From positions 207,416 to 271,415 of IMG/VR virus record IMGVR_UViG_3300042558_004148: a stretch of 64,000 nucleotides of DNA; one strand, given 5' to 3'. A program made the translations under genes and the position numbers. The DNA comes from a virus. Shown piece after piece: positions 13,480-37,286 of the stretch. The notes beneath the pieces are model-generated. The model had not been told where the DNA came from. It worked only from the letters and a program-made list of their open reading frames with translations, and made no database searches. Each line of letters begins with the position of its first letter. The stretch's first letter is position 1.

Positions 13480-13822
13480 AAGTCTAAAATTCTATAGAGA
13501 TCCAGATGGATGGTTTGTTGATCTACCTGAATGGGAAGGTTCTAAAGCTGATCTACAGATGGTTGCAGGAGCTGACGTATTTCTGGATATAATGTCACAG
13601 GGAGAAAATGAGGTTTATTTAACATTATCAGATACTCCAATGGATAACTGCAGCCAATTAACATTCAAAGAAATTGGGAGGTTGGAAGGATTTGAATTAG
13701 GAGAGGGAGCATGGTACGTTCTTAATGAGTATATTGGGATAGAATATAATCATGATATGTGGCTATGTGATGTCACTAAATTTGTATTTGGCGAATTTCC
13801 TAAAATAATATACTTTATATGA
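13472..13822 (+). CDS. hypothetical protein
   Basis: ORF track. Confidence 0.45.
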   Translation: MTRSLKFYRDPDGWFVDLPEWEGSKADLQMVAGADVFLDIMSQGENEVYLTLSDTPMDNCSQLTFKEIGRLEGFELGEGAWYVLNEYIGIEYNHDMWLCDVTKFVFGEFPKIIYFI

Positions 13823-19016: not shown

Positions 19017-20054
19017 ATGGATTCAAAATCAGTAATACGATCAATCATAGAAGGAAAGAGCGGGTTACATTTTTCTAAAGGTTGTAAAAAAATGTATAAA
19101 GAACTATATGATGAGATTTGCGAAAATACAAAATTCTTAGATGAGACAAATCCAAGAATAATTGATCGAGCATATCACTACATAAATGGGATAACCGAAT
19201 CTAAAAAATGTATCGAATGTTCAAATCCTATGTCTAGGATTGATTCTACCTTTTGTTCTAAAAAATGCATGGATTCTAGTGAATTCTTAAAAAAGAAAAA
19301 GGAGGAAACAAACTTAAAGAAATTTGGTTCTACAAATGTTTCTAAAACTGATTATTTTAAGGAAAAGTATAAAAATACAATGAATAAAAAATATGGTGTA
19401 GATCATTATTCTAAAACTAAAAGCTATTTAGAAAAGTATAGGGAAACTTCTCTTGAACGATACGGAGAATCGAATCCAGCAAAAAGTGATTTGATAAAAA
19501 AGAAGACTGAAGATACCAATATTGAAAGATATGGAAGTAAAAGTCCTTTGCAAAACCCCGCAATTAAACAAAAAACCATAGAAACTTTGACCTCTAAATA
19601 CAACATCGATCATAATTCTAAAATAGAAGGAAGATATGAAAAAATGAAAGAGAATTCAAATAATAATTTTGGTACCGACCATCCGATGCAAAATGAGGAA
19701 GTTTTTGATAAATGCATGAAAAACTCTTATCGTTTCAAAGAATATAAATTACCCAGTGGTAAAATTGTTAAGGTTCAAGGATATGAGAATTTTGCTTTAG
19801 ATAAATTACTGGAGTCCTATAATGAAAATGATTTGATTATAGGGACTAAAGAGATAAAAACTATTATAGGTAGAATCGAATACTTTTTCGAAGGTGGAAA
19901 AAAAGTATATCATCCTGATATTTACATAGTATCAGAAAATAAAATTGTTGAAGTTAAGTCAGCCTACACGATTAAGCTTGATTTAGAAAAAAACGAAGCT
20001 AAAAGAAAAGCTGTTTTAGATAAAGGAATTAATTTTGAATTTATGATTTTTTAA
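19017..20054 (+). CDS. putative nuclease: Zn-ribbon + six ~23-aa tandem repeats + C-terminal PD-(D/E)xK domain
   Basis: CIECSN...CSKKC zinc ribbon. Repeats of the form K.K.E....K(Y/F)G..(H/N).... x6. C-terminal YHPDIYIV...IVEVKSAY gives D...E.K (restriction-endonuclease-like). Confidence 0.45.
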   Translation: MDSKSVIRSIIEGKSGLHFSKGCKKMYKELYDEICENTKFLDETNPRIIDRAYHYINGITESKKCIECSNPMSRIDSTFCSKKCMDSSEFLKKKKEETNLKKFGSTNVSKTDYFKEKYKNTMNKKYGVDHYSKTKSYLEKYRETSLERYGESNPAKSDLIKKKTEDTNIERYGSKSPLQNPAIKQKTIETLTSKYNIDHNSKIEGRYEKMKENSNNNFGTDHPMQNEEVFDKCMKNSYRFKEYKLPSGKIVKVQGYENFALDKLLESYNENDLIIGTKEIKTIIGRIEYFFEGGKKVYHPDIYIVSENKIVEVKSAYTIKLDLEKNEAKRKAVLDKGINFEFMIF

Positions 20055-20064: not shown

Positions 20065-20922
20065 ATGAAAGACCCAATCGGAGATCGTATGAAATCTTTT
20101 TATGAAGATAGAACTCGATACAAGTTAACAAGAAGAACTTACACAATCATAAGAATTGACGGCAAGTCATTTAGTAATTACACAAAGGGATTAGAAAGAC
20201 CTTTCGACGAAGGACTAATCAATGACATGAATGCTACCACTGCATACCTTTGCAAAAACATTCAAGGAGCTAAATTAGGTTATGTACAATCAGACGAGAT
20301 TAGTTTAGTTCTAACTGACTTCGATGATCTAGGAACACATGCTTGGTTTGATAACAACCTACAGAAAATGGCGTCTGTAGCTGCTTCTATGGCAACAGCT
20401 AAATTTAATGAATTAAGGATTGCTAGAGCTTTTAGACAATATGAATGTCTATTCGATACGCCATTACAGATGAATGCCGATGAGATATTAGAATTTCTAT
20501 CTAAAATCAAGAAAGCTGAGTTTGACGCTAGGGTATTCCAAATCCCTTTTATCGACGAGGTTTGCAACTATTTTATTTGGAGACAACAAGATGCAGTAAG
20601 AAACTCAATTTCTTCGGTTGCACAAAGCCTTTATAGTACAAAAGAACTACATGGGGTTAAGACTGATGGAATGCAAGACCTAATCTTTCAGAAAGGAATC
20701 AATTGGAATGACTATGATTTTCGTAAGAAAAGAGGAGCAGTAATTGGCAAAGTAGAAAAGTTATTTACAAAGACCTCAAATTATTATGATCCTAATACAT
20801 CTTACATCCCGTCTGAACACATTTTTACTAGAAATGTATGGGAAGTTATTGAAACCCCAACGTTCACTCAAGACAAAGATTTTCTTAGAGATATTCTAAA
20901 CAAAGAAATAAAATCAGTTTAA
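20065..20922 (+). CDS. Thg1-like protein (tRNA-His guanylyltransferase family, 3'-5' polymerase)
   Basis: IIRIDGKSFSNYTKGLERPFDE, GYVQSDEISLVL and NNLQKMASVAASMATAKF align with the Thg1/TLP palm-domain motifs (RiDG..F, QSDE). Confidence 0.8.
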   Translation: MKDPIGDRMKSFYEDRTRYKLTRRTYTIIRIDGKSFSNYTKGLERPFDEGLINDMNATTAYLCKNIQGAKLGYVQSDEISLVLTDFDDLGTHAWFDNNLQKMASVAASMATAKFNELRIARAFRQYECLFDTPLQMNADEILEFLSKIKKAEFDARVFQIPFIDEVCNYFIWRQQDAVRNSISSVAQSLYSTKELHGVKTDGMQDLIFQKGINWNDYDFRKKRGAVIGKVEKLFTKTSNYYDPNTSYIPSEHIFTRNVWEVIETPTFTQDKDFLRDILNKEIKSV

Positions 20923-23686: not shown

Positions 23687-24574
23687 ATGTACATCTTAAA
23701 TCTCACGGACAATGAAAAGTCCGACATTAAATTTCAAATCTCAAAATTCCCTGATGGACAGCAATCAGTAACAATCACTGATTGTACAAATGCATCTGAT
23801 ATATCTCATCCCGTAAAAATTAAGTCCCGTCTAAATTCTTTTAAGGATTTAGAACTTATCGTTTGTGCAACACAAGCTTTACGAGATCTTGGTACTAAAG
23901 AAATTCATTTGTATTCTCCTTATTTTGTAGGTGCTCGTTCAGATCGTAAATTCGTTCAAGGATCCACGAACTATCTAAAAAATGTAATCTGTCCTATTAT
24001 CAATTCACAAAATTTCGAATCGGTAAATGTACTTGATCCTCACTCGGACGTACTCGAAGCTTGCTTAAATAATTACGTTAAGGAAGATAATCATCGACTT
24101 GTAAAATTTGCACTACCTCCAATCGATAATAAAGATGGTGCTCAAAGAAGAGTGGTTCTTGTTTCACCTGATGCTGGGGCTTACAAAAAAATCTTTGATG
24201 TTGCTCAGAAATTCGCCATCGAAAATGTGGTTACTGCTATGAAGCATAGGGACATCGAAACTGGGAAAATCACACATACAGAAATTCCTAATATCGATCA
24301 ATATGGTGAAGATCATAAATTTGTAATTGTCGACGATATCTGTGACGGTGGAAGAACCTTCATCGAATTGGCAAAGGAGATCCGTAAACATAACGCGATT
24401 TCTGACATCTATTTAATTGTTACCCATGGAATCTTCTCAGCAGGATTAAAACCACTGAATGATGCATTCACAGGAATATTCTGCACTAATTCATATTCAG
24501 ATGTGAACGATCCTGAATTTAGCCTACGTAACGATAATGAATTACATAGACTAAAGCAACTTAACGTTTTCTAA
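23687..24574 (+). CDS. ribose-phosphate pyrophosphokinase family protein (Prs-like; candidate ADP-ribose pyrophosphokinase)
   Basis: KFPDGQQSV, YSPYFVGARSDRK (cf. PYfgYARQDRK), VLDPHSD, VVLVSPDAGAYKK and FVIVDDICDGGRTF (PRTase loop) track Prs along its whole length. Confidence 0.75.
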   Translation: MYILNLTDNEKSDIKFQISKFPDGQQSVTITDCTNASDISHPVKIKSRLNSFKDLELIVCATQALRDLGTKEIHLYSPYFVGARSDRKFVQGSTNYLKNVICPIINSQNFESVNVLDPHSDVLEACLNNYVKEDNHRLVKFALPPIDNKDGAQRRVVLVSPDAGAYKKIFDVAQKFAIENVVTAMKHRDIETGKITHTEIPNIDQYGEDHKFVIVDDICDGGRTFIELAKEIRKHNAISDIYLIVTHGIFSAGLKPLNDAFTGIFCTNSYSDVNDPEFSLRNDNELHRLKQLNVF

Positions 24575-24580
24575 AACACT

Positions 24581-25096
24581 ATGGAATACAAAGAAATAAA
24601 AGGAGATCTGATAAAACTAGCTCAGGGAGCCAGTTTTGATGTCATTGCACATGGATGTAATTGTTTTTGCCAAATGGGTGCAGGAATTGCTCCACAGATG
24701 GCAAAGGCTTTTTCTTGTAACGATCCCGAAAAATATCACGGTGAATCAACATCATTCCCGGATAAAAGAGGTGATATGTCTAAGCTAGGAAATATTGAAT
24801 CATACGCTTGGTTCGTATTTGATGAAGAAGGTAACCGCAAGAGATTAGAAGTAGTCAATGCATACACACAATACAAATATGGTAGGAATCATAAGGACGG
24901 AGATAAAAATCCGGTTGATTATGCTGCAATTGAAATGTGTATAAAAAAGATGAATTATCGATTTAAGGGTAAGCATATAGGTCTTCCTAAGATAGGTGCT
25001 GGTCTTGCTGGCGGTGATTGGGAAAGAATCAAGGGTATTATACAAAAAGAATTAAAAGATTGCAGCGTAACTGTTGTAATTTACGAACCCTCTTAA
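24581..25096 (+). CDS. Macro-domain protein (ADP-ribose binding/processing)
   Basis: GDLIKLAQGASFDVIAHGCNC...MGAGIAP and IGLPKIGAGLAGGDWERI match the macro-domain motifs. Confidence 0.7.
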   Translation: MEYKEIKGDLIKLAQGASFDVIAHGCNCFCQMGAGIAPQMAKAFSCNDPEKYHGESTSFPDKRGDMSKLGNIESYAWFVFDEEGNRKRLEVVNAYTQYKYGRNHKDGDKNPVDYAAIEMCIKKMNYRFKGKHIGLPKIGAGLAGGDWERIKGIIQKELKDCSVTVVIYEPS

Positions 25097-25106
25097 AAAC
25101 AAAAAC

Positions 25107-25295
25107 ATGGAGAGATATAAAATAACGTGCAGGATCGAAACCGAATCTTGGAGAAAAACTATCGAATGCAGAGAAATGACAATTAAGGATGGTGCATATT
25201 GTTTTTGGACAGGTGAATATGGAAACACAAATAGATTAATATGGTCATTTCCGGTGATGTTCACGATAATTGAGGCTATAGAAGAAGAAAATTAA
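25107..25295 (+). CDS. hypothetical protein
   Basis: ORF track. Confidence 0.35.
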   Translation: MERYKITCRIETESWRKTIECREMTIKDGAYCFWTGEYGNTNRLIWSFPVMFTIIEAIEEEN

Positions 25296-25303
25296 CTCTA
25301 AAA

Positions 25304-25337
25304 TTTTTTTAATACCGAATTTTTAGCCTATATTTGC
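25304..25337 (+). promoter_or_regulatory. phage promoter: TTTTTTTAATACCGAA - N9 - TATATTTG
   Basis: -7 box at ~25329..25336. Confidence 0.5.
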
Positions 25338-25374
25338 AAAACAATAATTAAAATTGATAAAATAAAGAGAAATT

Positions 25375-25719
25375 ATGGCAGCAAAATCAAAATCAGTAAA
25401 AGCATTAGATTTATTAAAATCTAACAAATCAGTTTCTGAAAGAGCAGAAAACTACATCGTATCAGTAAAACGTAACATTCAACGTGATGTTATCGATGCA
25501 TTAACTGCTAAGAAAGAATCAATGGAGGATGAGTTATTCGAATTAACTAACTTCAACTTGGAAACCGATGTTAATAAAGGTTACCAACAAATGACTAAAG
25601 AATCGGTTGAACAAAGATTCAAAAAAGTTATCGACATCGAGTATAAGTTGAAATTGACAAGTTTAGAATTAGCTTCTAAGCAAGAGTCTTTTGACAAATA
25701 CTTCGCAGATGCTGAATAA
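25375..25719 (+). CDS. hypothetical protein
   Basis: ORF track. Confidence 0.45.
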   Translation: MAAKSKSVKALDLLKSNKSVSERAENYIVSVKRNIQRDVIDALTAKKESMEDELFELTNFNLETDVNKGYQQMTKESVEQRFKKVIDIEYKLKLTSLELASKQESFDKYFADAE

Positions 25720-26257
25720 GATATCTAAAGTATTTATCAGTGCTCCGATCTCTGTTGATTGGAGCACTGTTATGGAATTTGCTTCGGTTGTTAAAGAAGC
25801 TGGTGGTAATCCACAATACTGGTATCGCGATACGGTATACAATCAAAGGTCATTCGATGCATCAAATTCAGTCATATTCATTCTTCCGGGAAATGCATGG
25901 GAAAAATCCCAGCACGGTTTACCTAAGGGTTTGAAATCCGAATTATCCCGTGCATATGCATCAGGTAAAAATATCTACATTGGTTACATTACATCAAGAG
26001 GTGAACACAACATATATTGTGCTGATAGTAATGGAATGGACATCAAAGGTATACAGGGATCATCATCAGCATTTGAAGAACAAATGACAGCAAATAAATA
26101 CGCTGAAAGAGTTATGATGAATAGCACCTATGGTGCAAATATTTGTAGCGAAATTGAATTACCATTACCTAAAGGACCTACTGGGTTTTCAGGTAGACCC
26201 GGGATCGCAGGGGTTGATGGAATTGAATTTGATGAAAGATTATTATTGATGATGTAA
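25709..26257 (+). CDS. hypothetical protein with short collagen-like GXY run and C-terminal RLLLMM motif
   Basis: The track start 25691 is TTG, so the ATG at 25709 is preferred. C-terminus ...KGPTGFSGRPGIAGVDGIEFDERLLLMM. Confidence 0.45.
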   Translation: MLNKISKVFISAPISVDWSTVMEFASVVKEAGGNPQYWYRDTVYNQRSFDASNSVIFILPGNAWEKSQHGLPKGLKSELSRAYASGKNIYIGYITSRGEHNIYCADSNGMDIKGIQGSSSAFEEQMTANKYAERVMMNSTYGANICSEIELPLPKGPTGFSGRPGIAGVDGIEFDERLLLMM

Positions 26258-26429
26258 TCATGGGGAAAGAAAAATACCATTCGTTTGATATCGAAACATA
26301 CCATGCTATGAAATATGCTGATATCGATACATATGCACTGATGTCAGAAATAATTAATGCCGCATCTCGTCCGTGTAATACAGATCCTATCGAAGAAGAA
26401 TTGGATAACAGAATCTTATTAGCTTAACC

Positions 26430-26780
26430 ATGATAACATTCAAAGTAAAAAGAACTGAAGGGGTTGGGGTTAAACCAGGATGTGGATGGATTAAATATGT
26501 AGGAAAATCTAGACTAGACGGATTTCCAATTTTTTCTACTGATTATATAGGGCGTATTACTACTGATATCATAAAAGATCACTTAATCGTTAATACTAAA
26601 CCAGGATATATTCTAGAAAATCACGAGATAGAAGGAATAGGAAGTTTAGATGGTGGAATGATCAGGTCTTTCTCCGATGATTTGGTTCCAGTTAAGCCTA
26701 TGGATTCTCCTAGCGGAACCCTATTCTATATTGATCATGTTTATGAAGATTTAGATCCACGATTGCTATTAATGATGTAA
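26430..26780 (+). CDS. hypothetical protein with C-terminal RLLLMM motif
   Basis: Ends ...DLDPRLLLMM, the same six C-terminal residues as the upstream gene. Confidence 0.45.
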   Translation: MITFKVKRTEGVGVKPGCGWIKYVGKSRLDGFPIFSTDYIGRITTDIIKDHLIVNTKPGYILENHEIEGIGSLDGGMIRSFSDDLVPVKPMDSPSGTLFYIDHVYEDLDPRLLLMM

Positions 26781-26807
26781 ATTATTGATAACTTTTGTAA
26801 ATAATTG

Positions 26808-26840
26808 TCCCGAGATTTTTTAATCTCGGGATTTTGTTTT
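26808..26840 (+). terminator. rho-independent terminator followed directly by a -7 box
   Basis: TCCCGAGAttttttaaTCTCGGGA + TTTTGTTTT; TATATTTG at ~26840..26847. Confidence 0.55.
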
Positions 26841-26864
26841 ATATTTGCTCGTAATTAAAAAAAT

Positions 26865-27512
26865 ATGAAAAATAAAAAAGAACACCTAGACATCGAGAAT
26901 CCAATGGAAATGCTTGCTGCATTTACCCAAATGATGGGTTCCGGAGGGGTCCATAGTTTTTTTGGAGGATTACCTTTCGAAGAGAAAGAGAAATATCCAC
27001 ATGATCGATTAGGTGATGGATACGAACTTCGAAAAATCGAAATGAAAGATTTAAAAGGAAATCCAGTTGATAATCGAGATAATTACTCTCATTTATATCA
27101 TAACGATCTTAAGGTTTCTAGTGAAGTATTTCGTAGAGGTGGAACTGGTGGTAAATTTAAAGATGGTTATTGTTCACTGATACATTACGTAGAAGACAAA
27201 AAGAATTCTAAAGGATTTGATTTTGGAACACATGTTATCATTAACAATTTAGGTGAAATTGTTATGGGTAGAAAGGGATTGGATTATCCTAGTCATATTG
27301 GTGGTCATCTTGGTTCGATTAATAATTACATATATGATTTGAGAAGTGGTGCTGCAATTGCTCCAAAGTCTTCAACTACAATTACAGGAACAAACTGTAT
27401 TATTGTTGAACATAGATACGATTGGTATGATAAGGAGGTTAAGTTACCATTAGGAATCTACCGCATAGATTTTCAAACGGCAGAACTTTTATTAATAGAC
27501 AGCATAAAATAA
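26865..27512 (+). CDS. hypothetical protein
   Basis: ORF track. Confidence 0.45.
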   Translation: MKNKKEHLDIENPMEMLAAFTQMMGSGGVHSFFGGLPFEEKEKYPHDRLGDGYELRKIEMKDLKGNPVDNRDNYSHLYHNDLKVSSEVFRRGGTGGKFKDGYCSLIHYVEDKKNSKGFDFGTHVIINNLGEIVMGRKGLDYPSHIGGHLGSINNYIYDLRSGAAIAPKSSTTITGTNCIIVEHRYDWYDKEVKLPLGIYRIDFQTAELLLIDSIK

Positions 27513-27525
27513 TAAATACGTAATT

Positions 27526-27936
27526 ATGAAAAAACATTATTTTGAATTAGACAAAGTAGATTCTATTACTCTAACGGGAGAAAAAGAAACAGAATATGGA
27601 TGGTTCCAAGAGATTCCATCTAGACCTAAAACATTCCTAGGAATTAAATATGGTATGCATGAAGCAATTCCAGCAGGTTGGAATGATTATATTGATAAGG
27701 ACGGAAACGAATACAATACGCATTGGAGAAAACCAGTATCGTATTTTGCAGATTATTCTTCGTACAAAGTATGCGATATCACAGAAAGAATTTATAACAA
27801 AGCACATGTAGAAATTCGTTTTGGTTATAAACAATCTTTTGGAGTTAACTTCAATGATAACACAGAGGCTCAAAAATATGTTGATGATTTAATTAACTCA
27901 TCAGAAAAACAATTTCACGTAATAGTTAATATCTAA
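27526..27936 (+). CDS. hypothetical protein
   Basis: ORF track. Confidence 0.45.
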   Translation: MKKHYFELDKVDSITLTGEKETEYGWFQEIPSRPKTFLGIKYGMHEAIPAGWNDYIDKDGNEYNTHWRKPVSYFADYSSYKVCDITERIYNKAHVEIRFGYKQSFGVNFNDNTEAQKYVDDLINSSEKQFHVIVNI

Positions 27937-27940
27937 TCAA

Positions 27941-28432
27941 ATGAAAACATACACTAAATACACATTCTTCTATAAAACACGTCACCCGTTCTCCAATTGG
28001 CATCCATGTTCATTTGAGGACGAGGAGGGAAACGAATATAATTGCTCAGAGCAATGGATGATGGCGGAAAAGGCTAAGCTATTTGGCGACGAAGAAACCA
28101 GAGAGGAAATTTTATTCTCAAAGGATCCTGGTAAACAAAAGGAGCTAGGGAGAAAGGTTAAGAATTTCAATTCTGATGTCTGGACAGAAAATGCTAAAAA
28201 AATTGTTTACAATGGATGTCATTTGAAATTCACTCAGAATCCAAAATTACTAAAAACATTATTGGACACCGAAGGAACCTTACTTGTTGAAGCTTCACCC
28301 TACGATAAAATCTGGGGTATAGGTCTTGGCGAGGATGACCCTAAAATACACGATCCTAAAAATTGGAGAGGTACAAATTGGCTAGGCGAAGTTCTAACTG
28401 ATCTTAGAGATAATCTATTAAAATCTAAATAA
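27941..28432 (+). CDS. NADAR (YbiA/DUF1768) domain protein
   Basis: FSNWHPCSF.....YNCSEQWMMAEKAKLF....W......KF.QNP.L...LL.T....LVEASPYDKIWGIG is the NADAR signature. Confidence 0.7.
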   Translation: MKTYTKYTFFYKTRHPFSNWHPCSFEDEEGNEYNCSEQWMMAEKAKLFGDEETREEILFSKDPGKQKELGRKVKNFNSDVWTENAKKIVYNGCHLKFTQNPKLLKTLLDTEGTLLVEASPYDKIWGIGLGEDDPKIHDPKNWRGTNWLGEVLTDLRDNLLKSK

Positions 28433-28433
28433 A

Positions 28434-28682
28434 ATGGCAACATCACCAGAATACTTAAACAAAGCTTTCCAGAGGGAAGTTGATGAATTTGAACTTAAAT
28501 TGGATTCTCAACTGGAGAAAAAAACCGTAGTAAAAGGAGGTTCGGTTTCTATAGACATTCCAAATGGAATGTCACAAAGACATTTCGGACTACTTGAATC
28601 CAAATATATTTCCGCTGGATGGAGTTCAGTTAAATGGAATAGTGATCAGAGAGAAGGTATGTGGTTAACTTTCACCTACTAG
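28434..28682 (+). CDS. hypothetical protein
   Basis: ORF track. Confidence 0.4.
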   Translation: MATSPEYLNKAFQREVDEFELKLDSQLEKKTVVKGGSVSIDIPNGMSQRHFGLLESKYISAGWSSVKWNSDQREGMWLTFTY

Positions 28683-28686
28683 GTCA

Positions 28687-29196
28687 ATGAGCAAATTAGT
28701 CTATATAGGATCGCCATATTCAAATCAGGATCCAGCTGTTAGAGAGGAAAACTTTAATATAGTTTCCAGACTAGCTGCAAGAGAATGCTCAAATGGAAAA
28801 GTTGCTTTCTCGCCAATAACATATGGGCATACTCTTATTGAGTTTAAACATATGCCAACCAATTGGGAATTCTGGAAATCATTTTGTCTTGCATTTCTAG
28901 AACATGCTGATGAGCTACTGGTTTATAAAATGCCAGGATGGGAGAATTCAAGGGGTCTTGCCGAAGAGATACTATTTGCAACCGAGAGGAATATAAAAAT
29001 CACTTGGTTGGAATATGATCAATACGAAAACGTTCCCGTAGATGAAAAGAGAGAATTCATATCAGCGAATGGAGAATGGGAGAATTCATGGTCCGATGAT
29101 AACTGGGTACGTAAGGACTCAGATAACAAAGAAGCAAATACTGGAATAGATACCGACCATCTATATAGATCACTTAAATTAAAAAGTGAGTTGTAA
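28687..29196 (+). CDS. DUF1937-like protein (nucleoside 2-deoxyribosyltransferase-like fold)
   Basis: VYIGSPYS...SPI.YGH...PGWENSRGLAEEILFA resembles the DUF1937 / N-deoxyribosyltransferase-like pattern. Confidence 0.4.
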   Translation: MSKLVYIGSPYSNQDPAVREENFNIVSRLAARECSNGKVAFSPITYGHTLIEFKHMPTNWEFWKSFCLAFLEHADELLVYKMPGWENSRGLAEEILFATERNIKITWLEYDQYENVPVDEKREFISANGEWENSWSDDNWVRKDSDNKEANTGIDTDHLYRSLKLKSEL

Positions 29197-29230
29197 TTTT
29201 TTTATCCCGTATAAATTTAATATCTTTACA
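29196..29230 (+). promoter_or_regulatory. phage promoter: TTTTTTTATCCCGTA - N9 - TATCTTTA
   Basis: Canonical copy of the recurring upstream element; ATG at 29248. Confidence 0.5.
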
Positions 29231-29247
29231 AAACTAAAAATATAAAT

Positions 29248-30765
29248 ATGTTTAAACCCACAAGTTTATTTTACACTGATGGCTATAAAATTGGCCACAA
29301 GAAAATGTTAGCTCCCGGAACAACCCGTTTGTACGGTACTTGGATTCCACGAAGCACAAAGCATGCTCCTGAGGGAGTAGATAAAATAGTATCATTCGGT
29401 CAACAATTGGTAGTGAAATGGTTACATGATGAATTCGAAGAGAATTTTTTCAAACAACCAATTAGCGTTGCTACTAAATTTTCCGATGATATGTCAAAGT
29501 ATTTAGGACTTCCGTTCGATGGTTCACACTTCTCGGAATTACATCATCTGGGTTACTTGCCTATTAGAATTAAAGCTTTACCTGAAGGTATCGAAACAAA
29601 CCCTAACATCCCTCACATGACATTTGTGAATACTGTGGATGGATTCGGATGGTTAACATTATATTTGGAGACCATCATATCTTCATTGGCATGGAAACCA
29701 GCAACCTCTGCTACACTTGCACTAAGATACCGAAGAAATTTGGTTGAATGGGTTACGAAAACTGATCCGGCTAACGCTTGGTTAATTCCTTTCCTATGTC
29801 ACGACTTCTCTGCTAGAGGTTTATCTCCATGGGATATGTTATCTAGTGGTTTAGGACACGCTACGTCATTCAGAGGATCTGACACTATTGTTTGTATTCC
29901 TGCAGCACGATACTTCTATAACGAGCCAGAAAACGATGTCTGCATCAATTCTGTTAACGCTTCTGAACACTCAGTATCAACAACAAAGATATTTACTGTA
30001 GGAGAACAACAAATGATCTCCGATTGGTTAACTGAATTCCCTACAGGAATCCTATCAATTGTATCTGACACTTTTGATTTATGGAAACTTATCACGGAAT
30101 ATCTTCCTGCAAATAAAGAGCAAATCATGTCACGTGATGGAAAACTTGTTATCCGTCCTGACTCTGGTGATCCAGTAGATATTATCTGTGGTTCAGTGGA
30201 TGTGTTTAAGCACAATGATCCTAATTCACCACAAAGAAAAGGTGTAGTTGAATTACTTTGGGATATCTTCGGTGGAACAATCAACGAACAAGGATACAAA
30301 GTTCTTGATCCACATATTGGTGCGATCTACGGGGATTCAATCACAGTTGGTCGTCAGATTCAAATCTATGAAAGATTAGAAGAAAAAGGTTTTGCTTCAA
30401 CAAACATCGTGTTGGGAATCGGATCATTCACTTATCAAATGAATACTAGAGATACTTTGGGATTCGCTGCTAAAGGAGCTTGGTTCGAAGTAGAAGAACC
30501 TATATTTGGTGAATTTTTAGACCAAAATCTAAATACTGAAAAGGTTGCTTATGACATCTATAAAGATCCAATCACTGACGACGGAACTAAAAAATCATTG
30601 AAGGGATTAGTTCAAGTTGTAATGGAAGGCGATGAATATCATGTTAATACTCAATGTACTTGGGAACAGGAGGAGCAGGGCTTTTTACAAACAATCTATG
30701 AAGAGGGAAGATTCGTTAACGAAACAACTCTTGAGGAAGTACGTAACAAATTAAATTCTTTATAA
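29248..30765 (+). CDS. nadV: nicotinamide phosphoribosyltransferase family protein (Nampt/NadV-like; candidate nicotinamide ADP-ribose transferase)
   Basis: LFYTDGYKIGHKKMLAPGTTRLYGTWIPRS matches the Nampt N-terminus (tDsYK.tH..yP..t..yS....R). NASEHSVSTT matches AAEHST. Length 505 aa. Confidence 0.75.
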   Translation: MFKPTSLFYTDGYKIGHKKMLAPGTTRLYGTWIPRSTKHAPEGVDKIVSFGQQLVVKWLHDEFEENFFKQPISVATKFSDDMSKYLGLPFDGSHFSELHHLGYLPIRIKALPEGIETNPNIPHMTFVNTVDGFGWLTLYLETIISSLAWKPATSATLALRYRRNLVEWVTKTDPANAWLIPFLCHDFSARGLSPWDMLSSGLGHATSFRGSDTIVCIPAARYFYNEPENDVCINSVNASEHSVSTTKIFTVGEQQMISDWLTEFPTGILSIVSDTFDLWKLITEYLPANKEQIMSRDGKLVIRPDSGDPVDIICGSVDVFKHNDPNSPQRKGVVELLWDIFGGTINEQGYKVLDPHIGAIYGDSITVGRQIQIYERLEEKGFASTNIVLGIGSFTYQMNTRDTLGFAAKGAWFEVEEPIFGEFLDQNLNTEKVAYDIYKDPITDDGTKKSLKGLVQVVMEGDEYHVNTQCTWEQEEQGFLQTIYEEGRFVNETTLEEVRNKLNSL

Positions 30766-30767: not shown

Positions 30768-31031
30768 ATGGCAATGGAAAAAGTATGGCAATGGCTTGCA
30801 ATCCTGGTAATTGCAACATTAACTGGGACATTAGTTCATCATGTAGTATCACCAAAACACGTGGTTAGATATGAACTAGGGATTGGGTATGATGGAATTC
30901 CAGCGATTACCGCAGATATCGAGAACTCGGCAGATGATCGCATTCATCTATCAAAAGAAGTGAGCTGGAGCGATGCAGTTCATATGGTTGATTCATTAAA
31001 TATGAATTTACGTAAACATCGTATAAAATAA
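30768..31031 (+). CDS. small membrane protein (NfeD-like position upstream of flotillin)
   Basis: N-terminal TM helix WLAILVIATLTGTL; immediately precedes the SPFH/flotillin gene. Confidence 0.35.
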   Translation: MAMEKVWQWLAILVIATLTGTLVHHVVSPKHVVRYELGIGYDGIPAITADIENSADDRIHLSKEVSWSDAVHMVDSLNMNLRKHRIK

Positions 31032-31055
31032 ATTTTATTAAAAATCAAAAATTAA

Positions 31056-32948
31056 ATGGAAATTCTATTATCTTATGCCTGGGTATTAATCCCAATTTTA
31101 GCTCTCTTGTTTTACAAGTTCACGCTACGTTTCTTCTTCGGTATGGTTATTATACCAGAAGACAAAATCGGTTTAGTTACCAAAAAATTCGTTTTGTTCG
31201 GTGCAAACAAATCTCTTCCTGATGGGAAAATTATTGCACTAAATGGAGAACCTGGTTACCAGGCGGATCCACTAGCTCCTGGACTTTATTGGGGTTATTG
31301 GGTGTGGCAATATTCAATTGATCAATCTCCATTGACTGTAATTCCGAAAGGTAAGATTGGTTTGCTATCTGCTAAAGACGGTGCACAATTACCTACTGGA
31401 TCTATTCTTGCCCGAAATATTGAATGTGATAATTATCAAGACACTAGGGCATTCCTATTAAATGGCGGACAGCGAGGTAAACAGGTTGGTTACTTAAACA
31501 ATGGGGTTTATCGTATCAATCCATATTTATTTGAAATATTCTTAGCTGATATCACAAGCATCGAAGATGGGATGGTCGGTGTAGTAACGGCATTAGACGG
31601 AACTCCTCTAGAACTAGCTTCCATTGCAGGATCAGTAATTGAAGGTCATAATAATTTCCAAGATTTTGATAAGTTTTTATCAAAGGGAGGTCAAAGAGGT
31701 ATGCAAATCCAGGTTATTCAAGCTGGTTCTTATTCTCTTAACCCTTGGGCAGTTGAGGTAGAGAAAAAAGAAATGACTTCTATTCCAATCGGTCATGTCG
31801 GTGTGGTAATATCATATGTTGGAGATGAAGGTGAGGACACTACTGGTGACGGATTCAAACACGGTAATATTGTTAAGAAGGGGCAAAAAGGAGTTTGGGC
31901 TTCGGTATTAGACCCTGGTAAATATGCAATTAATCCTTACACACAAAAAATTGAAATCGTACCTACAACCAATCTAGTTCTTAACTGGGCAACTGCTAGA
32001 AACGAATCACATAATTTGGATCAGAACTTAAGTACAATTACAGTTCGATCTCAAGATGGATTCCCATTCAACTTGGACGTATCACAAATCATTCACGTAC
32101 CTTCAACTGAAGCTCCTAAGGTAATTGCTCGATTTGGTTCAATGTCAAACCTAGTATCTCAGGTATTAGAACCTACAATTGGTAACTACTTCAGAAACTC
32201 AGCTCAGGATTCGGATGTTATTTCTTTCCTATCAACTAGACAGCAAAGACAAACTGCTGCTAAGGAAAAGATCAGTCAGGTACTGGAGGAATATAATGTT
32301 CATGCTGTTGATACTCTTATCGGAGATATCGTTCCACCAGCAGAGTTAATGAAAACCCTAACAGATCGTAAGATTGCATCGGAGGAGGAAGTAACTTTTG
32401 ATACTCAACGTAAAGCACAGGATAAACGTAAAACTTTAGAATCTGCTAAAGCACTTGCTGATATGCAGGGACAAATGGTTCAGGCACAACAATCTGTAGA
32501 AATCTCCGAAAGAGAAGCTCAAGCAGCGGTTAAAAAATCTGAAGGTGAAGCTAAGGCGATAGAATTAAAAGCTGGTGCAAACGCAAAAGCCAAAATCTTA
32601 AATGCTGAAGCTGAAGCGAAACAAATTCAATTAACAGGTACAGCGGAAGCTACTAAGATTGAAGCGATCGGTAAAGCAACAGCGGAAGCTTACGATTTAC
32701 AGGTTAAAGCAATGGGTGAAGCCAATTTCGGTCAATTAAAAGTAGTTGAATCGATTGGGGTGAACAATATCAAGATTATCCCTGAAATTCTTATCACAGG
32801 TGGAGAAAGCGGATCTAATGGTCCAATCTCGGGATTACTTGGGATGGAATTATTAAGTCAGGTTACTGCTAGAAAAAATGCAAATGCATCTACTACAGAA
32901 ACACCATTGAGCTCAATAACTCAGGAAAGTCCGAAAAAAGATAAATAA
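31056..32948 (+). CDS. flotillin-like SPFH-domain membrane protein
   Basis: N-terminal TM helix, a central SPFH-like region and a C-terminal Ala/Glu-rich coiled coil (AEAEAKQIQLTGTAEATKIEAIGKATAEA) typical of flotillin/YqiK. Confidence 0.6.
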   Translation: MEILLSYAWVLIPILALLFYKFTLRFFFGMVIIPEDKIGLVTKKFVLFGANKSLPDGKIIALNGEPGYQADPLAPGLYWGYWVWQYSIDQSPLTVIPKGKIGLLSAKDGAQLPTGSILARNIECDNYQDTRAFLLNGGQRGKQVGYLNNGVYRINPYLFEIFLADITSIEDGMVGVVTALDGTPLELASIAGSVIEGHNNFQDFDKFLSKGGQRGMQIQVIQAGSYSLNPWAVEVEKKEMTSIPIGHVGVVISYVGDEGEDTTGDGFKHGNIVKKGQKGVWASVLDPGKYAINPYTQKIEIVPTTNLVLNWATARNESHNLDQNLSTITVRSQDGFPFNLDVSQIIHVPSTEAPKVIARFGSMSNLVSQVLEPTIGNYFRNSAQDSDVISFLSTRQQRQTAAKEKISQVLEEYNVHAVDTLIGDIVPPAELMKTLTDRKIASEEEVTFDTQRKAQDKRKTLESAKALADMQGQMVQAQQSVEISEREAQAAVKKSEGEAKAIELKAGANAKAKILNAEAEAKQIQLTGTAEATKIEAIGKATAEAYDLQVKAMGEANFGQLKVVESIGVNNIKIIPEILITGGESGSNGPISGLLGMELLSQVTARKNANASTTETPLSSITQESPKKDK

Positions 32949-33042: not shown

Positions 33043-33663
33043 ATGAACATAAATGTATTTTTTGATAAAATTTTTTATATTAATTTGGATAAGGACACCG
33101 ACAGGGATTCCAAAATGATTGAGCAATTCAAACGATATAACATAACTAACTACGAGCGTGTTTCGGGTACAGTTTGGGAATTGGTTCCTGACATTTCATT
33201 TTGGAGAAATTTCAACCAGGATCAAACAACTGAAAAATACGTTTTGGGCAGTCTCGGATGCAGAAATTCACATTGGAGAATTACTAAAATGGCAATGGAG
33301 AGAGGATATAACAAAATATTAATTTTGGAAGACGATGTTATCTTTACCGAGGACCCACATGAAATTTTAGAGAATAATAAAAATAAATTGGATAATTGGG
33401 ACATGCTTTATTTCGGTGGAGCGGAGGAGGATAATTTCGATGGGCAGATCGTTGGCGCATATGCATATTGTTTAAATAGGAAGTTAATAGAGGAAATATA
33501 TTATATGCTACCAACTTCCGGTATGGAAGTAGATAACTTTTATGCAAAGGTGCTGTTTCATATGAGCTACAATTACAGTAAATCAGGTAGGTATGATATA
33601 AAGAAGATCGAACCTTTTAATACAATCAAAGTCGATTTCGAATTTATCTCAAATATTAGATAA
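33043..33663 (+). CDS. glycosyltransferase family 25 (LPS/LOS-type) protein
   Basis: N-terminal FDKIFYINLDKDTDR matches the GT25 signature (…YvINL……R). Confidence 0.6.
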   Translation: MNINVFFDKIFYINLDKDTDRDSKMIEQFKRYNITNYERVSGTVWELVPDISFWRNFNQDQTTEKYVLGSLGCRNSHWRITKMAMERGYNKILILEDDVIFTEDPHEILENNKNKLDNWDMLYFGGAEEDNFDGQIVGAYAYCLNRKLIEEIYYMLPTSGMEVDNFYAKVLFHMSYNYSKSGRYDIKKIEPFNTIKVDFEFISNIR

Positions 33664-33666
33664 AAT

Positions 33667-34356
33667 ATGGAAACAAACCCTTTTAATTTTTTCGATAAGA
33701 TCTTTTATATCAACCTAGATGATAGGCCTGAAAGAAAGTTACATATTGAAAATGAATTGGAAAAATATGGAATCGTTGCTGAGAGATTTCCAGCAATACA
33801 ATTAACGCAGGAGCAAAACGAGATTTTAAAAAGTGAGGGCTGCATGTTTAAAAAAGATGAAAGACCCGAATACTCAAGATTTGCAAAATCCTGTGCGTTA
33901 TCGCACCTTCATATTATACTAAGATCCAAATTAATGGGATACAAGAACGTTTTAATTCTTGAGGATGATGTTATATTCAGGGAAGATATTTTGGAGGAAT
34001 TAAAAAAATCACTTGATGATTTAGAAAAAGAATCCAGATGGGACATGTTTTATATCGGATGCAATCCATTCCTATATGAGAAGGTAACCGACAATTTATC
34101 AATTTCATTAGGAGCATATGCAGCACACGCATATGCTGTGAATAGTCATTTCTATGATACCATATTAAATATACCATTCAGGATTCTTCCAATTATAGAT
34201 GTGTATTATTATAATCTATCTACGAACCCATTATATAAATTATATATGTCGCCACATAATTTAGCTTGGCAGATACCTAGTTATTCGACTCTGGAGGAGA
34301 TGGACGTTGACTATTATCCAATTATAGAGGAGAGATATAATCTGAATGGAATCTAA
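33667..34356 (+). CDS. glycosyltransferase family 25 protein (tandem paralogue)
   Basis: FFDKIFYINLDDRPERK; LILEDDV shared with the upstream paralogue. Confidence 0.6.
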   Translation: METNPFNFFDKIFYINLDDRPERKLHIENELEKYGIVAERFPAIQLTQEQNEILKSEGCMFKKDERPEYSRFAKSCALSHLHIILRSKLMGYKNVLILEDDVIFREDILEELKKSLDDLEKESRWDMFYIGCNPFLYEKVTDNLSISLGAYAAHAYAVNSHFYDTILNIPFRILPIIDVYYYNLSTNPLYKLYMSPHNLAWQIPSYSTLEEMDVDYYPIIEERYNLNGI

Positions 34357-34381: not shown

Positions 34382-34891
34382 ATGATAACATTAAATAAAC
34401 CAGATGACCAATTTATAACGGAATCCGATTCAATAAAGATATTTCTAGCGGGATCTATCGATATGGGATCTTCAGAAGATTGGCAAACAGAAATATACAA
34501 CCGATTAGTAACAATCGAAGCTGATAATGCAGCAAATATCGAAGTTTATAATCCCAGAAGAGATTCATGGGATAGTACCTGGACACAGGAACAATCAAAT
34601 TCTGAGTTCAATTATCAGGTTAATTGGGAGCTTAATAACATAGAAGACTCAGATATAGTTTTCTTTAATATATTACCAGATTCAAAAAGTCCAATCACAT
34701 TAATGGAACTTGGCCTATGTGCGGGTAAGGAGAAAAAAGCTATAGTTTGCTGTCCTGATGGATTCTACAGAAAGGGAAATGTTGATGTTGTTTGTACAAG
34801 ATATGGTATACAACAATACACAGATATAGATTCGGCATTTGGTGCATTATTAACGGAATTGAATAAAATCGAAAGAAGTAAAATTAAATAA
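34382..34891 (+). CDS. nucleoside 2-deoxyribosyltransferase-like / DNPH1-like protein
   Basis: IKIFLAGSID and SDIVFFNILPDSKSPITLMELGLCAGKEKKAIV match the Nuc_deoxyrib_tr pattern (kiYlAG ... D.GT.fElG.a...gKpv). Confidence 0.45.
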   Translation: MITLNKPDDQFITESDSIKIFLAGSIDMGSSEDWQTEIYNRLVTIEADNAANIEVYNPRRDSWDSTWTQEQSNSEFNYQVNWELNNIEDSDIVFFNILPDSKSPITLMELGLCAGKEKKAIVCCPDGFYRKGNVDVVCTRYGIQQYTDIDSAFGALLTELNKIERSKIK

Positions 34892-34898: not shown

Positions 34899-35804
34899 GT
34901 GATGAAAGCAATAAAAGAAATCGTACAGTATATAGAAACTGATAATCCAACCGGGACATTAAGTATACTGGAGCCAAATTACTCATCCGTAAGTGAGGAA
35001 GGCATATTACCAATACAATTAAACACCAAGAATTTCCATTTGGAAGACCATAGGATCAAATCAGTAATGAACAAAGAAACTATTGCTGATATCATGGCTA
35101 TGCACGGTATAGATTCAAGAGCGATGACAAAAAATACAATCGATAATGAAGCTGAAGTTAACCTAGAGAAAAAAATCTATGGGATGCTAGAAGAATCAGG
35201 AAGAAATAACTACCGAAGTGAATGGAGCAAAACTAGATGGTTCATTTATAATTGGTTGGGTTATTATCCTAAGGTTAGAATATTAGCAACAGAGTCTTCA
35301 CCTGGGAGTCTTTTAAAGCATATACATATAGCAGGAAGTAAAATAGCAAACAAGTCAAGAGGTGGAGGTGCTGATTTTATTATAGTTAGCCAATCAATAG
35401 GATCACTGCTATCGGATCTTAGCCAATTCTCTTTCAATATGGAAGAAGCAACAAATTTCATAGAGAACGGATCATCAATCAGACAAATAGGTGTTCTTGC
35501 TGGAAGATATAGGGTACTTATAAATCCTTTACTTAGTAATGATATAGATCAAACCAGTATTGTAATCGGAGCATCCACAAAAGAAGGACAGGAAGGTGTC
35601 TATCATATTGCTATGCTTCCTACCTATGATGAAATCGAGAACGAAAACTACGCAACTCTAAGAACTGAAATCATCACGGTGAGGTCACAAAGAATGGCAA
35701 CAATAAAAACCAACAACTCTGATTTCAAATACATAACAATTCCGCTTACTAAATCTAGACACAATATAATAACTCACCTATATAAAAAAATATTTAAAAA
35801 ATAA
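34899..35804 (+). CDS. hypothetical protein
   Basis: ORF track. Confidence 0.45.
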   Translation: MMKAIKEIVQYIETDNPTGTLSILEPNYSSVSEEGILPIQLNTKNFHLEDHRIKSVMNKETIADIMAMHGIDSRAMTKNTIDNEAEVNLEKKIYGMLEESGRNNYRSEWSKTRWFIYNWLGYYPKVRILATESSPGSLLKHIHIAGSKIANKSRGGGADFIIVSQSIGSLLSDLSQFSFNMEEATNFIENGSSIRQIGVLAGRYRVLINPLLSNDIDQTSIVIGASTKEGQEGVYHIAMLPTYDEIENENYATLRTEIITVRSQRMATIKTNNSDFKYITIPLTKSRHNIITHLYKKIFKK

Positions 35805-35807
35805 GAG

Positions 35808-36938: not shown

Positions 36939-37286
36939 ATGAAAGTTATCATTGCTGGTGGTAGGGGTTTTTCAGATTTTCAATTATTATATGCTAAGTG
37001 TGAAGAAATTTTAGCTAATCAAACGGAAGTAGAGATTGTTAGCGGTACTGCAAAGGGAGCAGACAAAATGGGAGAACACTATGCTAAATTAAAAGGATTT
37101 ACGGTTAAGCAATTCCCTGCGGAATGGGACAAATATGGAAAATCAGCAGGATATATTAGAAATAAGGATATGGCGGATTACGCTGATATCCTTATTTCAT
37201 TCTGGGATGGAGAATCAAAAGGAACAAAGCATATGATAGATCTTGCAACGGAGAGAAATCTATCAATTCACATAATAAATTATTAA
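36939..37286 (+). CDS. SLOG/LOG-like Rossmann-fold protein (DUF2493-like)
   Basis: MKVIIAGGRGF....VEIVSGTAKGADKMGEHYA......FPAEWDKYGKSAGYIRNKDM......ISFWDGESKGT. Confidence 0.4.
   Translation: MKVIIAGGRGFSDFQLLYAKCEEILANQTEVEIVSGTAKGADKMGEHYAKLKGFTVKQFPAEWDKYGKSAGYIRNKDMADYADILISFWDGESKGTKHMIDLATERNLSIHIINY

Follow-up and report, generated by a model that had tools for sequence, protein, structure and literature searches.

A predicted NARP1-AP-type NAD+ reconstitution module with candidate accessory glycosidase-like genes in a jumbo phage genome

We analyzed a 64-kb stretch (the window) of a roughly 370-kb jumbo phage genome; absences reported within the window apply to those 64 kb only. Within it lies a module that likely consists of a NARP1-AP core (Adps, Adpp, and Namat), which would rebuild NAD+ after a NADase defense has acted, plus candidate accessory glycosidase-like genes. 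The seven ORFs named in a first-pass annotation, five of which it had described as ADP-ribose-related genes in one direction, are all present at the given coordinates on the + strand with the assigned domains. Pfam matched Pribosyltran, NADAR, DUF1937, and NAPRTase, and the Macro match fell below the gathering score but is backed by other matches. The features are as follows.

23687..24574, + strand: predicted Adps, a PRPS-like ADP-ribose pyrophosphokinase and first NARP1 enzyme (Pfam, BLASTP, residues)
24581..25096, + strand: Adpp-like Macro domain protein, predicted ADPR-1''-phosphate phosphatase (Gary Adpp homology, position)
25107..27512, + strand: variable cassette comprising six ORFs (25107, 25375, 25691, 26260, 26430, 26865) with no assignable function
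26807..26832, + strand: terminator-like hairpin, 11-bp stem and T-run, in the intergenic gap between ORF 26430-26780 and ORF 26865-27512
27526..27936, + strand: 136-aa conserved protein, fold unknown, also present in other NARP1 neighborhoods
27941..28432, + strand: NADAR domain protein, YbiA-type, with Glu in LLVEAS (Pfam, TIGR02464, PDB)
28434..28682, + strand: small conserved ORF, 82 aa, found after Macro or NADAR in related loci L038, L058, L065, and L088
28687..29196, + strand: DUF1937 (NDT-superfamily) protein with a ~55-aa C-terminal extension (Pfam, PDB)
29248..30765, + strand: predicted Namat, nicotinamide ADPR-transferase and second NARP1 enzyme (PDB matches, clamp motifs)
30768..32948, + strand: small membrane-like ORF and 630-aa SPFH/Band7 protein (Band_7 1.2e-26), conserved 3' of Namat
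34382..34891, + strand: PF15891 NDT-like protein (NDT2), candidate NARP1 accessory enzyme (Pfam, neighborhood)
36939..37286, + strand: YAcAr/YpsA-type SLOG protein (Pfam YAcAr SLOG 2.7e-17)

The Prs-like protein (23687-24574) matched Pfam Pribosyltran (1.8e-8), with Pribosyl_synth sub-threshold. In NCBIfam it scored 90.2 bits against the 113-bit TIGR01251 cutoff and lay far under all equivalog cutoffs. Using BLASTP, we obtained 135 bits to Bas62 Adps and 114 bits to ICP1 Adps, which are validated or near-validated references, and 51.6 bits to E. coli Prs. The Adps residues F21, R84/D86/R87, H119, D162, K186, and D216/D217 are kept, the adenine-contact Phe/Arg and DD pair are conserved, the PP (donor) loop DDICDGGRTF is the same as in Bas62, and the catalytic Lys is also common to Adps. 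The PRPS C-terminal helices are absent from the protein. By these sequence comparisons, the protein lies outside housekeeping Prs and closer to Adps than to E. coli Prs.

The Nampt-like protein (29248-30765) matched Pfam NAPRTase (4.5e-30), and its PDB matches scored 393.7 bits for SPβL1 Namat (9w5x), 158.7 for Xcc Nampt, and about 131 for human Nampt. Its catalytic-core residues align with SPβL1 Namat, and it contains the published Namat clamp motifs, SCH GSFTYQMNTRD (the Namat signature) and SCL PRSTKHAP. Unlike the Tyr/Phe found in NARP1, clamp position 7 is the non-aromatic Met, a variant present in 9 of 36 Namat homologues scanned. The alignments indicate that the protein groups with the solved Namat and not with true Nampt. 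The Adps-like scores, clamp motifs, and PDB bits thus agree with the proposal, made from the first reading, of a NARP1-like pair of ADPR pyrophosphokinase and Nampt-like transferase.

The Macro gene starts 7 nt downstream of Adps. Its Pfam match is weak (E 0.0042, under the gathering score), but PDB matches to the protein include the macrodomains 2fg1/2afc (about 1e-9), Poa1p (4e-4), and the BT1257 macrodomain, and in 2804 phage records its matches are macro-domain proteins or "putative phosphatases." Furthermore, it aligns with validated Adpp from Vibrio phage Gary at a modest 35% identity (E 2e-24) with motifs in common. Because these structure, phage-record, and Adpp matches offset the weak Pfam score, we consider the Macro assignment secure. 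An Adpp-like gene adjoining Adps, beside Adps and Namat, in turn identifies the core as the known NARP1-AP system.

As in NARP1 (Adps and Namat) of Bas63, SPβL1, and ICP1 (NrsAB), the two window enzymes belong to the same families, carry the diagnostic residues (PP loop, Lys, SCH/SCL), and are encoded on one strand and one genomic arm; their identity to validated NARP1 enzymes is only 31-45%, with a modest 31-38% for Adps. The predicted chemistry, ADPR to ADPR-PP to NAD+, is likewise that of NARP1. A host NADase defense of the SIR2, TIR, or SEFIR type would cut NAD+ into ADP-ribose and nicotinamide. By homology, Adps would then place the pyrophosphate of ATP on the 1'' position of ADP-ribose, which would yield ADPR-PP, and Namat would exchange that pyrophosphate for nicotinamide, which would yield NAD+. 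As in the Adps-Adpp-Namat operon of Gary, where the Poa1p-like Macro protein also directly follows Adps, the Macro protein is predicted to strip the 1''-phosphate from the ADPR-1''-phosphate that RES-type NAD+ phosphorylases (aRES) produce, which would yield usable ADP-ribose.

The layout differs from these systems. The first-pass annotation had described Adps and Namat as separated by Macro and NADAR genes; the two are indeed not adjacent, but the interval holds eleven ORFs that are 50 aa or longer, not those two genes alone. Unlike in Bas63, SPβL1, and ICP1, this interval spans 4.7 kb and includes the terminator-like hairpin, and unlike in the compact three-gene operon of Gary, Namat lies apart from the other two genes, with NADAR and NDT-like genes in addition. 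None of the six cassette ORFs matched Pfam or PHROG, and just one of them, the 62-aa ORF at 25107, turned up again in related loci; L065, the most syntenic relative, is without the cassette. The 82-aa ORF had no match in Pfam, PHROG, or PDB. From the hairpin in the gap, we infer that Adps/Macro is transcribed separately from NADAR/DUF1937/Namat, which suggests that a ~2.8-kb variable cassette with its hairpin probably splits the module into two transcription units. Given the distance and the hairpin, co-expression of Adps and Namat is an assumption.

We also propose, less firmly and from gene neighborhood only, that the NADAR protein and the NDT-superfamily proteins at 28687-29196 and 34382-34891 probably act as accessory N-glycosidases within the same economy. 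They may release ADP-ribose that is N-linked in adducts or signals, or they may free nicotinamide from pyridine nucleotides. There is a precedent in the RyDEP-containing NARP1 locus of mycobacteriophage DyoEdafos, where an accessory enzyme converts a NAD+-derived molecule to ADPR; unlike that locus, the window is without a RyR-domain protein, and its candidates have NADAR and NDT folds. The NDT-like protein (Pfam Nuc_deoxyri_tr2, 1.4e-33) has relatives in 80 viral contigs, and Namat lies within 8 kb in 62 of them. Adps, Macro, and NADAR were found in 47, 35, and 16 of these 80 loci, respectively, and an SPFH gene follows Namat in 19. Many of the loci are related, and the counts are therefore not independent. 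In viral loci seeded with Namat, Adps is a few kb away in 29/31, and relatives carry compact Adps-Macro-NADAR-Namat-NDT operons. The SLOG gene sits with the NDT-like gene in L064, L065, L071, and Ralstonia phage RsoM2USA.

It is possible, though we doubt it, that the extra genes ride along independently in an accessory-gene arm, with their nearness to NARP1 reflecting only shared early expression and shared ancestry. As such passengers, NADAR would guard phage DNA against DarT1/YarT-type guanine ADP-ribosylation, and the NDT-like and DUF1937 proteins would act in nucleotide metabolism. Consistent with this idea, all tested NADARs strip ADP-ribose from guanine, and the phage NADAR AdfN (T4 gp30.3) counters DarTG1. 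The relatedness among loci also favors it, as do four cultured jumbo phages (of Ralstonia, Xanthomonas, Alishewanella, and Brevundimonas) whose NDT-like homologues have no NARP1 neighbors. Among viral relatives of the DUF1937 protein (Pfam DUF1937 7.8e-14; PDB 1t1j 8e-10), the 13 closest lie within NARP1 loci and 67 more distant ones, of 80, lie outside, so its NARP1 link is limited to one close subclade; its C-terminal extension is common to L065 alone. In Caulobacter phage CcrBL9, a DUF1937 gene follows a PnuC-NadR pair. In contrast to the passenger idea, the NDT-like gene occurs in about 45 different gene orders, including between Adps and Namat or overlapping Namat, and an Adps-NDT-Namat triplet recurs across chromosomes of several Bacteroidota families. 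Furthermore, the window NADAR (Pfam NADAR 4.7e-52; TIGR02464 169 bits against a 73.7 cutoff; PDB 8bau 4.8e-22) shares the fold of AdfN but sits in a NARP1 locus and has Glu rather than His at the diagnostic last-strand residue, which marks the YbiA family and not the AdfN type. NADAR is present in 16/80 phage and 19/80 bacterial NARP1 loci.

Homologous Adps and Namat also occur in bacterial nrtR-prs-nadV operons, published with ADPR as effector (Rodionov 2008), and in "bacterial NARP1" (Lan 2026). Such loci in Bacteroidota hold the NDT-like, NADAR, and Macro genes of the window as well, in chromosomal NrtR-Adps-NDT-Namat-NADAR-KptA-Macro operons and in NrtR-headed operons on Mb-sized contigs with KptA/Tpt1, PARG, Macro, and NADAR. 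Because the same families cluster on bacterial chromosomes as well as across dozens of related viral contigs, their grouping is not chance, and the earlier idea of an expanded ADPR-handling module gains support. The module looks like a viral counterpart of this ADP-ribose-responsive operon. Since nrtR-prs-nadV operons are known housekeeping-type regulons, the module could instead be a Bacteroidota-derived recycling unit with the same chemistry and no dedicated counter-defense, in which ADP-ribose from RNA repair, sirtuins, and reversal of ADP-ribosylation would feed the NAD+ demand of a large phage. The window does encode an RNA ligase, a CCA-type nucleotidyltransferase, and a Thg1-like enzyme, and Thg1 lies within the NARP1 neighborhood in 12/80 loci. 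However, we consider this reading unlikely: unlike the bacterial operons, which also feature DUF4291 and a metallophosphatase, the window is without these two genes, and we found no KptA, NrtR, or PARG homologue in it either; experiments have shown that phage NARP1 and NARP1-AP overcome SIR2-HerA, Thoeris I, DSR, and aRES; and NARP1 is active only after ADPR builds up.

Classical salvage like that of NARP2, in which the two proteins would make PRPP and NMN for a host or phage NMNAT encoded elsewhere, is very improbable: both proteins match generic families (Pribosyltran and NAPRTase), the Nampt-like protein passes NF006629 ("nicotinate phosphoribosyltransferase," NCBIfam), published Namat has some PRPP activity in vitro and about half of the NMN-forming activity of human Nampt, and most of the genome lies outside the window, but the Adps- and Namat-like features described above, a 64-kb window with no NMNAT motif or NadR or PnuC homologue, and surveys that pair 97% of Adps-clade genes with Namat and put NARP2 Nampts in a separate clade all argue against it. 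The module shares phage NAD+ restoration with NARP2 (KVP40 Nampt and NMNAT/Nudix) and NARP3 (PnuC and NadR) but differs in its Namat-type transferase and in having no NMNAT, NadR, or PnuC within the window; the first-pass annotation had also argued against NARP2, from the missing NMNAT motif.

Taken together, these results favor a NARP1-AP core with accessory genes. The core itself was already known; what is new is the association of the PF15891 NDT-like gene with NARP1, for which we found no published description. Across many phages and Bacteroidota genomes, extra, uncharacterized glycosidase-like genes accompany the pathway that rebuilds NAD+.

The island lies on the plus strand, which carries nearly all genes of the AT-rich window (G+C about 35%). 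The ORFs named in the first-pass annotation were found at exactly the coordinates it gave, and their domains are backed by Pfam or structure matches.

Domain assignments in the island (coordinates, strand, assignment)
23687-24574, +, phosphoribosyltransferase/PRPP-synthetase-like protein (Pfam)
24581-25096, +, Macro protein (Pfam below threshold, E 0.0042; secured by structures and phage homologues)
27941-28432, +, NADAR protein (Pfam 4.7e-52)
28687-29196, +, DUF1937 protein (Pfam)
29248-30765, +, NAPRTase/Nampt-family protein (Pfam)
34382-34891, +, PF15891 NDT-like protein (Pfam 1.4e-33)
36939-37286, +, YAcAr SLOG protein (Pfam)

The first-pass annotation proposed a NARP1-like island, and the evidence for an Adps-type kinase, a Namat-type transferase and an Adpp-like Macro protein supports that proposal and sharpens it. 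Judged by sequence, the locus is a dispersed NARP1-AP, a known system, within a wider conserved ADP-ribose module. In NARP1, Adps pyrophosphorylates ADP-ribose (ADPR) and Namat joins the resulting ADPR-PP to nicotinamide, as published.

The Prs-like protein was compared with housekeeping PRPP synthetase (Prs) and with phage Adps. It scored under every NCBIfam/TIGRFAM Prs cut-off, with 90.2 bits against the 113-bit NCBIfam subfamily cut-off and about 75-76 bits at most against equivalog cut-offs of at least 296 (about 300-500), which argues against a housekeeping Prs. Matches to PRPS structures in the PDB reached 48.9 bits at most, and BLASTP gave 135 bits to Bas62 Adps and 114 to ICP1 Adps versus 51.6 to E. 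coli Prs. Bas62 is a sister of the experimentally tested Bas63, and ICP1 Adps is structurally characterised. The ICP1 structures single out the catalytic Lys185, Asp212/213, Phe18/Arg87/Phe92, His121, Asp161, a remodelled PP loop and the loss of the PRPS C-terminal helices. Alignment of the window protein showed that F21, R84/R87, the F in RKFVQG, H119, D162, K186 and D216/D217 are kept, which comprise the adenine-contacting Phe/Arg and the equivalents of His121, Asp161, catalytic Lys185 and Asp212/213. Its donor (PP) loop, DDICDGGRTF, is identical to that of Bas62, whereas E. coli Prs has DDMIDTGGT, and it lacks the C-terminal extension that forms the PRPS C-terminal helices. Profile cut-offs, BLASTP and residue alignment together place the protein in the Adps clade.

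The Nampt-like protein scored 393.7 bits against SPβL1 Namat (9w5x, taken as such because its numbering agrees with that published for SPβL1 Namat) and 369.5 against 9ke8, versus 158.7 for the true Nampt of Xcc (Xanthomonas) and about 131 for human Nampt, which assigns it to the Namat clade. The published selectivity clamp of Namat consists of SCH, GSXΦXΦXΦTRD, where positions 3 and 7 are aromatic, and SCL, in which the third residue is R/K/Y and is accompanied by a stacking residue. The window SCL (PRSTKHAP) has Lys and then His, which agrees with this rule, and the window SCH (GSFTYQMNTRD) has Phe at position 3 and the non-aromatic Met at position 7. Met also occupies position 7 in 9 of 36 scanned Namat homologues, including the closest relatives and phiAbaA1. 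The first-pass annotation had held that placement of both core proteins in housekeeping clades would count against NARP1; the Prs-like protein fell below the Prs cut-offs and the Nampt-like protein scored higher with Namat than with Nampt, so this placement was not found.

Two other reconstitution routes were weighed. NARP3 pairs PnuC with NadR, and the 64-kb window holds homologues of neither. NARP2 combines a Nampt-clade enzyme with a phage NMNAT; the transferase here is Namat-type, and the window contains neither the GxFxPxHxGH motif nor a NadR-like match. The first-pass annotation likewise saw no NMNAT motif (H/T-x-G-H). The minus strand encodes, at 38547-39116, an AAA_28 P-loop protein (Pfam 6.9e-13), a family to which the ribosylnicotinamide kinase domain of NadR also belongs. 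Conservation of this protein among the island's closest relatives is 79-80%, and its similarity to a phage NadR is only weak (E 0.12). In four related loci (L028:10001-11842, L029:10001-12705, L031:1891-4679 and L033:10001-12596), Namat is split into two to three pieces by inserts of ~0.2-1.1 kb that may represent introns, inteins or homing elements.

The Macro ORF begins 7 nt beyond Adps. According to a 2026 preprint, aRES proteins (RES-domain defence proteins) split NAD+ into nicotinamide and ADPR-1''-phosphate, the latter being unusable for Adps, and a Poa1p-like Macro phosphatase, Adpp, found in 15% of NARP1 phages, restores ADPR. The window protein shares 35% identity (E 2e-24) with the Adpp of Vibrio phage Gary, a purified enzyme whose sequence we took from Table S1 of that preprint, and the two have in common the motifs AHxCNCF...MGxGIA and GLPxIGxGLAGGDW. 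Its PDB matches are the macrodomain structures 2fg1/2afc (1e-9) and Poa1p (4e-4), and homologues occur in 2804 phage records, many annotated as phosphatase or macro domain. Assignment to DarG fails at 37.5 bits against a 250-bit cut-off. Because this Adpp-like Macro gene stands beside Adps, we assign the locus to NARP1-AP, for which the published definition is a Poa1p-like Macro protein at most two genes from a NARP1 gene, and we predict that the Macro protein is an ADPR-1''-phosphate phosphatase. Acinetobacter phage phiAbaA1 has a comparable layout, in the order Adps-x-Namat-Macro.

Homology to validated enzymes makes a three-step pathway likely, in which the Macro protein would convert ADPR-1''-phosphate to ADPR, Adps would convert ADPR to ADPR-PP, and Namat would combine ADPR-PP with nicotinamide to yield NAD+.

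The distance from Adps-Macro to Namat is 4.7 kb, with eleven ORFs in between. The published NARP1 search rule, which is a search rule and not a biological property, asks for Namat within 10 genes of Adps. Counting ORFs from 50 aa upwards places Namat 12th downstream of Adps, and it is the 10th when ORFs of 55 and 62 aa are left out, which makes the locus borderline under this rule, such that automated surveys could overlook it. Six of the intervening ORFs (25107-27512) have no database match and five of these recur in no relative; the 25107-27512 cassette is missing altogether from L065, the contig with the greatest synteny, and a strong terminator-like hairpin occupies the intergenic gap at 26807-26832. 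We infer that a variable cassette was inserted between the core genes and that Adps and Namat are on separate transcripts. A sigma-70 promoter scan yielded fewer sites than in shuffles, and we claim no promoters. Pfam and PHROGs gave no match for the small ORFs between Macro and Namat or in the flanks, and a PDB sequence search with ORFs 27526 and 28434 gave no meaningful match. The locus differs from those with the NARP1 accessory RyDEP in that RyR Repeat12 (PF02026) is absent, by Pfam and PHROG, from the ORFs between Adps and Namat.

The NDT-like protein shows the NDT/Rcl fold (structure prediction with pLDDT 90.5), and its invariant residues include a Glu at the NDT nucleophile position, two more acidic residues and an Arg/Lys cluster. 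We regard the protein as a probable active N-glycosidase for a phosphorylated ribosyl compound. Among 31 viral contigs gathered with Namat (47-79% identity), 29 carry Adps within a few kb of Namat, and several have compact operons that include the NDT-like gene, in the orders Adps-Macro-NADAR-Namat-NDT-like (L010, L030 and L032), Adps-NDT-like-Macro-Namat (L014) and Adps-Macro-x-x-Namat-NDT-like (L008). A profile scan with the NDT-like protein returned 533 viral contigs, and we compared the best 80 (47-67% identity) over 8 kb on each side.

Genes found in the best 80 of 533 NDT-seeded viral loci
Namat, 62 of 80
Adps, 47 of 80
Macro, 35 of 80
SPFH, 19 of 80
NADAR, 16 of 80
DUF1937, 10 of 80

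The NDT-like gene occurs in about 45 gene orders, including positions between Adps and Namat or overlapping Namat, and in 47 of 72 loci its start is no more than 2.2 kb from that of Namat. Because some of the loci are related, the counts are not independent, but the many arrangements argue for selection on the linkage of the NDT-like gene to NARP1. The linkage does not extend everywhere, since four cultured jumbo phages carry a homologue without NARP1 neighbours. In the literature on PF15891, DUF1937 or 4MCJ we found no link to NAD+ reconstitution (De Souza and Aravind, 2012, may discuss such neighbourhoods), and a 2022 survey reported only ADP-ribosyl cyclase-like viral members of the NDT-like superfamily. 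The NDT-like component of the ADP-ribose module appears undescribed.

NADAR scored 176.9 bits against the 35.1-bit cut-off of PF08719 and 169.2 against the 73.7-bit cut-off of TIGR02464, and its best structure match is a Phytophthora NADAR. Because Glu occupies its diagnostic last-strand position (LLVEAS), the residue also found there in the YbiA family and in 8bau, we class it as YbiA-type. This residue sets it apart from AdfN (T4 gp30.3), which has His at that position and counters DarTG1. NADARs assayed so far all strip ADP-ribose from guanine, and NADAR genes adjoining phage NadV were noted in 2022; a literature search found no description of NADAR together with NARP1. For DUF1937, a single-sequence scan of viral contigs gave no relative and a profile scan supplied 80, of which only the 13 closest are in NARP1 loci, which argues against a general NAD-linked family. 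In Caulobacter phage CcrBL9 (L124:3332-5393), a PnuC-like transporter, a NadR-like enzyme and DUF1937 form an overlapping three-gene run; PnuC-NadR is the NARP3 arrangement, and the DUF1937 gene, of the NDT superfamily, overlaps the end of the pair.

Related gene sets occur in bacterial genomes. The NDT-like profile gave 108 hits there, most of them in Bacteroidota (Ferruginibacter, Flavobacterium, Pedobacter, Chitinophaga, Aquimarina and Saprospiraceae), and within 5 kb the best 80 loci contain Adps in 25, Namat in 19 and NADAR in 19. The typical order, with the gene assignments confirmed by Pfam, is NrtR, Adps, NDT-like, Namat, several NADAR paralogues and KptA/Tpt1, followed by calcineurin-like phosphoesterase, DUF4291, Macro and microbial PARG genes. 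NrtR heads chromosomal operons at L127, L133, L137, L162, L172 and other Bacteroidota genome loci. NrtR is an ADP-ribose-responsive regulator, nrtR-prs-nadV operons were described in 2008 without the NDT-like/NADAR extension, and bacterial NARP1 activity has been demonstrated for a Paenibacillus pair. In contrast to the Bacteroidota operons, the window lacks NrtR, KptA, PARG and DUF4291. Given the shared genes, the island of the phage resembles a pared-down viral version of an operon with which a host recycles ADP-ribose, and the link to NrtR-headed operons suggests the source from which phages obtained the pathway. Island DNA had no near-identity match among 50,697 phage records, and metagenomic contigs of up to 373 kb carry the NDT-like protein at 100% identity, which assigns the window to an uncultured jumbo phage. 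The best cultured-phage relatives of its proteins include Leptolyngbya phage Lbo-JY46 (Namat 66%, Adps 44%), Tenacibaculum phage PTm1 (Namat 61%) and Cellulophaga phages (Macro 45%). Based on the phage relatives and bacterial homologues, the host of the window phage is probably a member of the Bacteroidota.

Several further genes were observed in or around such loci. A family of ~144-aa HAD-like ORFs with a DxDxT motif (AVDFDDTIS) and no Pfam match lies between or beside Adps and Namat in 18 viral loci (L005:9517-9942, L012:4318-4737, L027:9533-9967 and 15 more) and in bacterial loci L142, L148, L160 and L199; it is absent from the window and may constitute a second phosphatase type linked to NARP1. 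Directly after Namat, the window encodes a 630-aa SPFH/Band7 protein (31056-32948; with a small ORF at 30768-31031), a position kept in 19 of 80 viral loci. Two tandem family-25 glycosyltransferases (33043-34356) are inserted between the SPFH and NDT-like genes; they were not detected there in the compared related viral contigs, and one homologue lies elsewhere in L017. Between the NDT-like and SLOG genes (34899-36929) are a short, 301-aa Gp23-like protein and then an M16 peptidase, far from any visible structural module, and several relatives have a homologue of the Gp23-like ORF following Namat or the NDT-like gene. A tRNA-repair-like set (2944-4083, 10870-11628 and 20065-20922) comprises an RNA ligase bearing a PHA02142 OB domain, a nucleotidyltransferase with a CCA/poly(A)-polymerase head and a Thg1-like enzyme. 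Homologues of Thg1 are found within the NARP1 neighbourhood of 12 of 80 related loci, and also close to the CcrBL9 NadR pair. Immediately upstream of the Thg1-like gene, a DUF7487 protein (19017-20054) with a weak TnsA-like endonuclease match may be a homing-type endonuclease. The phage also encodes, at 13819-14679, a PvuRts1I-like endonuclease that carries an SRA domain, a type of enzyme that cuts hydroxymethylcytosine-modified DNA.

Judging only from gene neighbourhood, we tentatively suggest that the NADAR and NDT-like proteins would provide ADPR or nicotinamide by acting on further compounds derived from NAD+. Two substrates would fit the fold of the NDT-like protein. It could be an N-glycosidase that turns a further NAD+-derived product into ADP-ribose, the candidates being a base-exchange product or an N-linked ADP-ribose signal (for instance His-ADPR or N-cyclised ADPR). 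Alternatively, its substrate could be NMN or nicotinamide riboside, with nicotinamide as the released product. If either activity is real, a wider range of defences or of NAD+ breakdown pathways would become reversible by NARP1, as is already the case with Adpp and RyDEP. It is possible, at a confidence that stops short of favouring the idea, that PF15891 NDT-like proteins, and perhaps also YbiA-type NADAR and the close DUF1937 subclade, are undescribed enzymes of an extended NAD+ reconstitution pathway common to phages and Bacteroidota.

NAD+ depletion is among the commonest bacterial anti-phage strategies, and the answer most common among phages is NARP1. Questions about the extra genes in NARP1 loci recently led to both the Adpp phosphatase and the RyDEP glycosidase, and the next accessory candidates are the PF15891 NDT-like protein, which lies between or beside Adps and Namat in phages and Bacteroidota, the YbiA-type NADAR and the putative HAD-like phosphatase of relatives. 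If these candidates feed further NAD+ breakdown products into NARP1, each points to a corresponding host chemistry that awaits discovery, and protein families with solved structures but no known role (4mcj and 1t1j) would gain a function.
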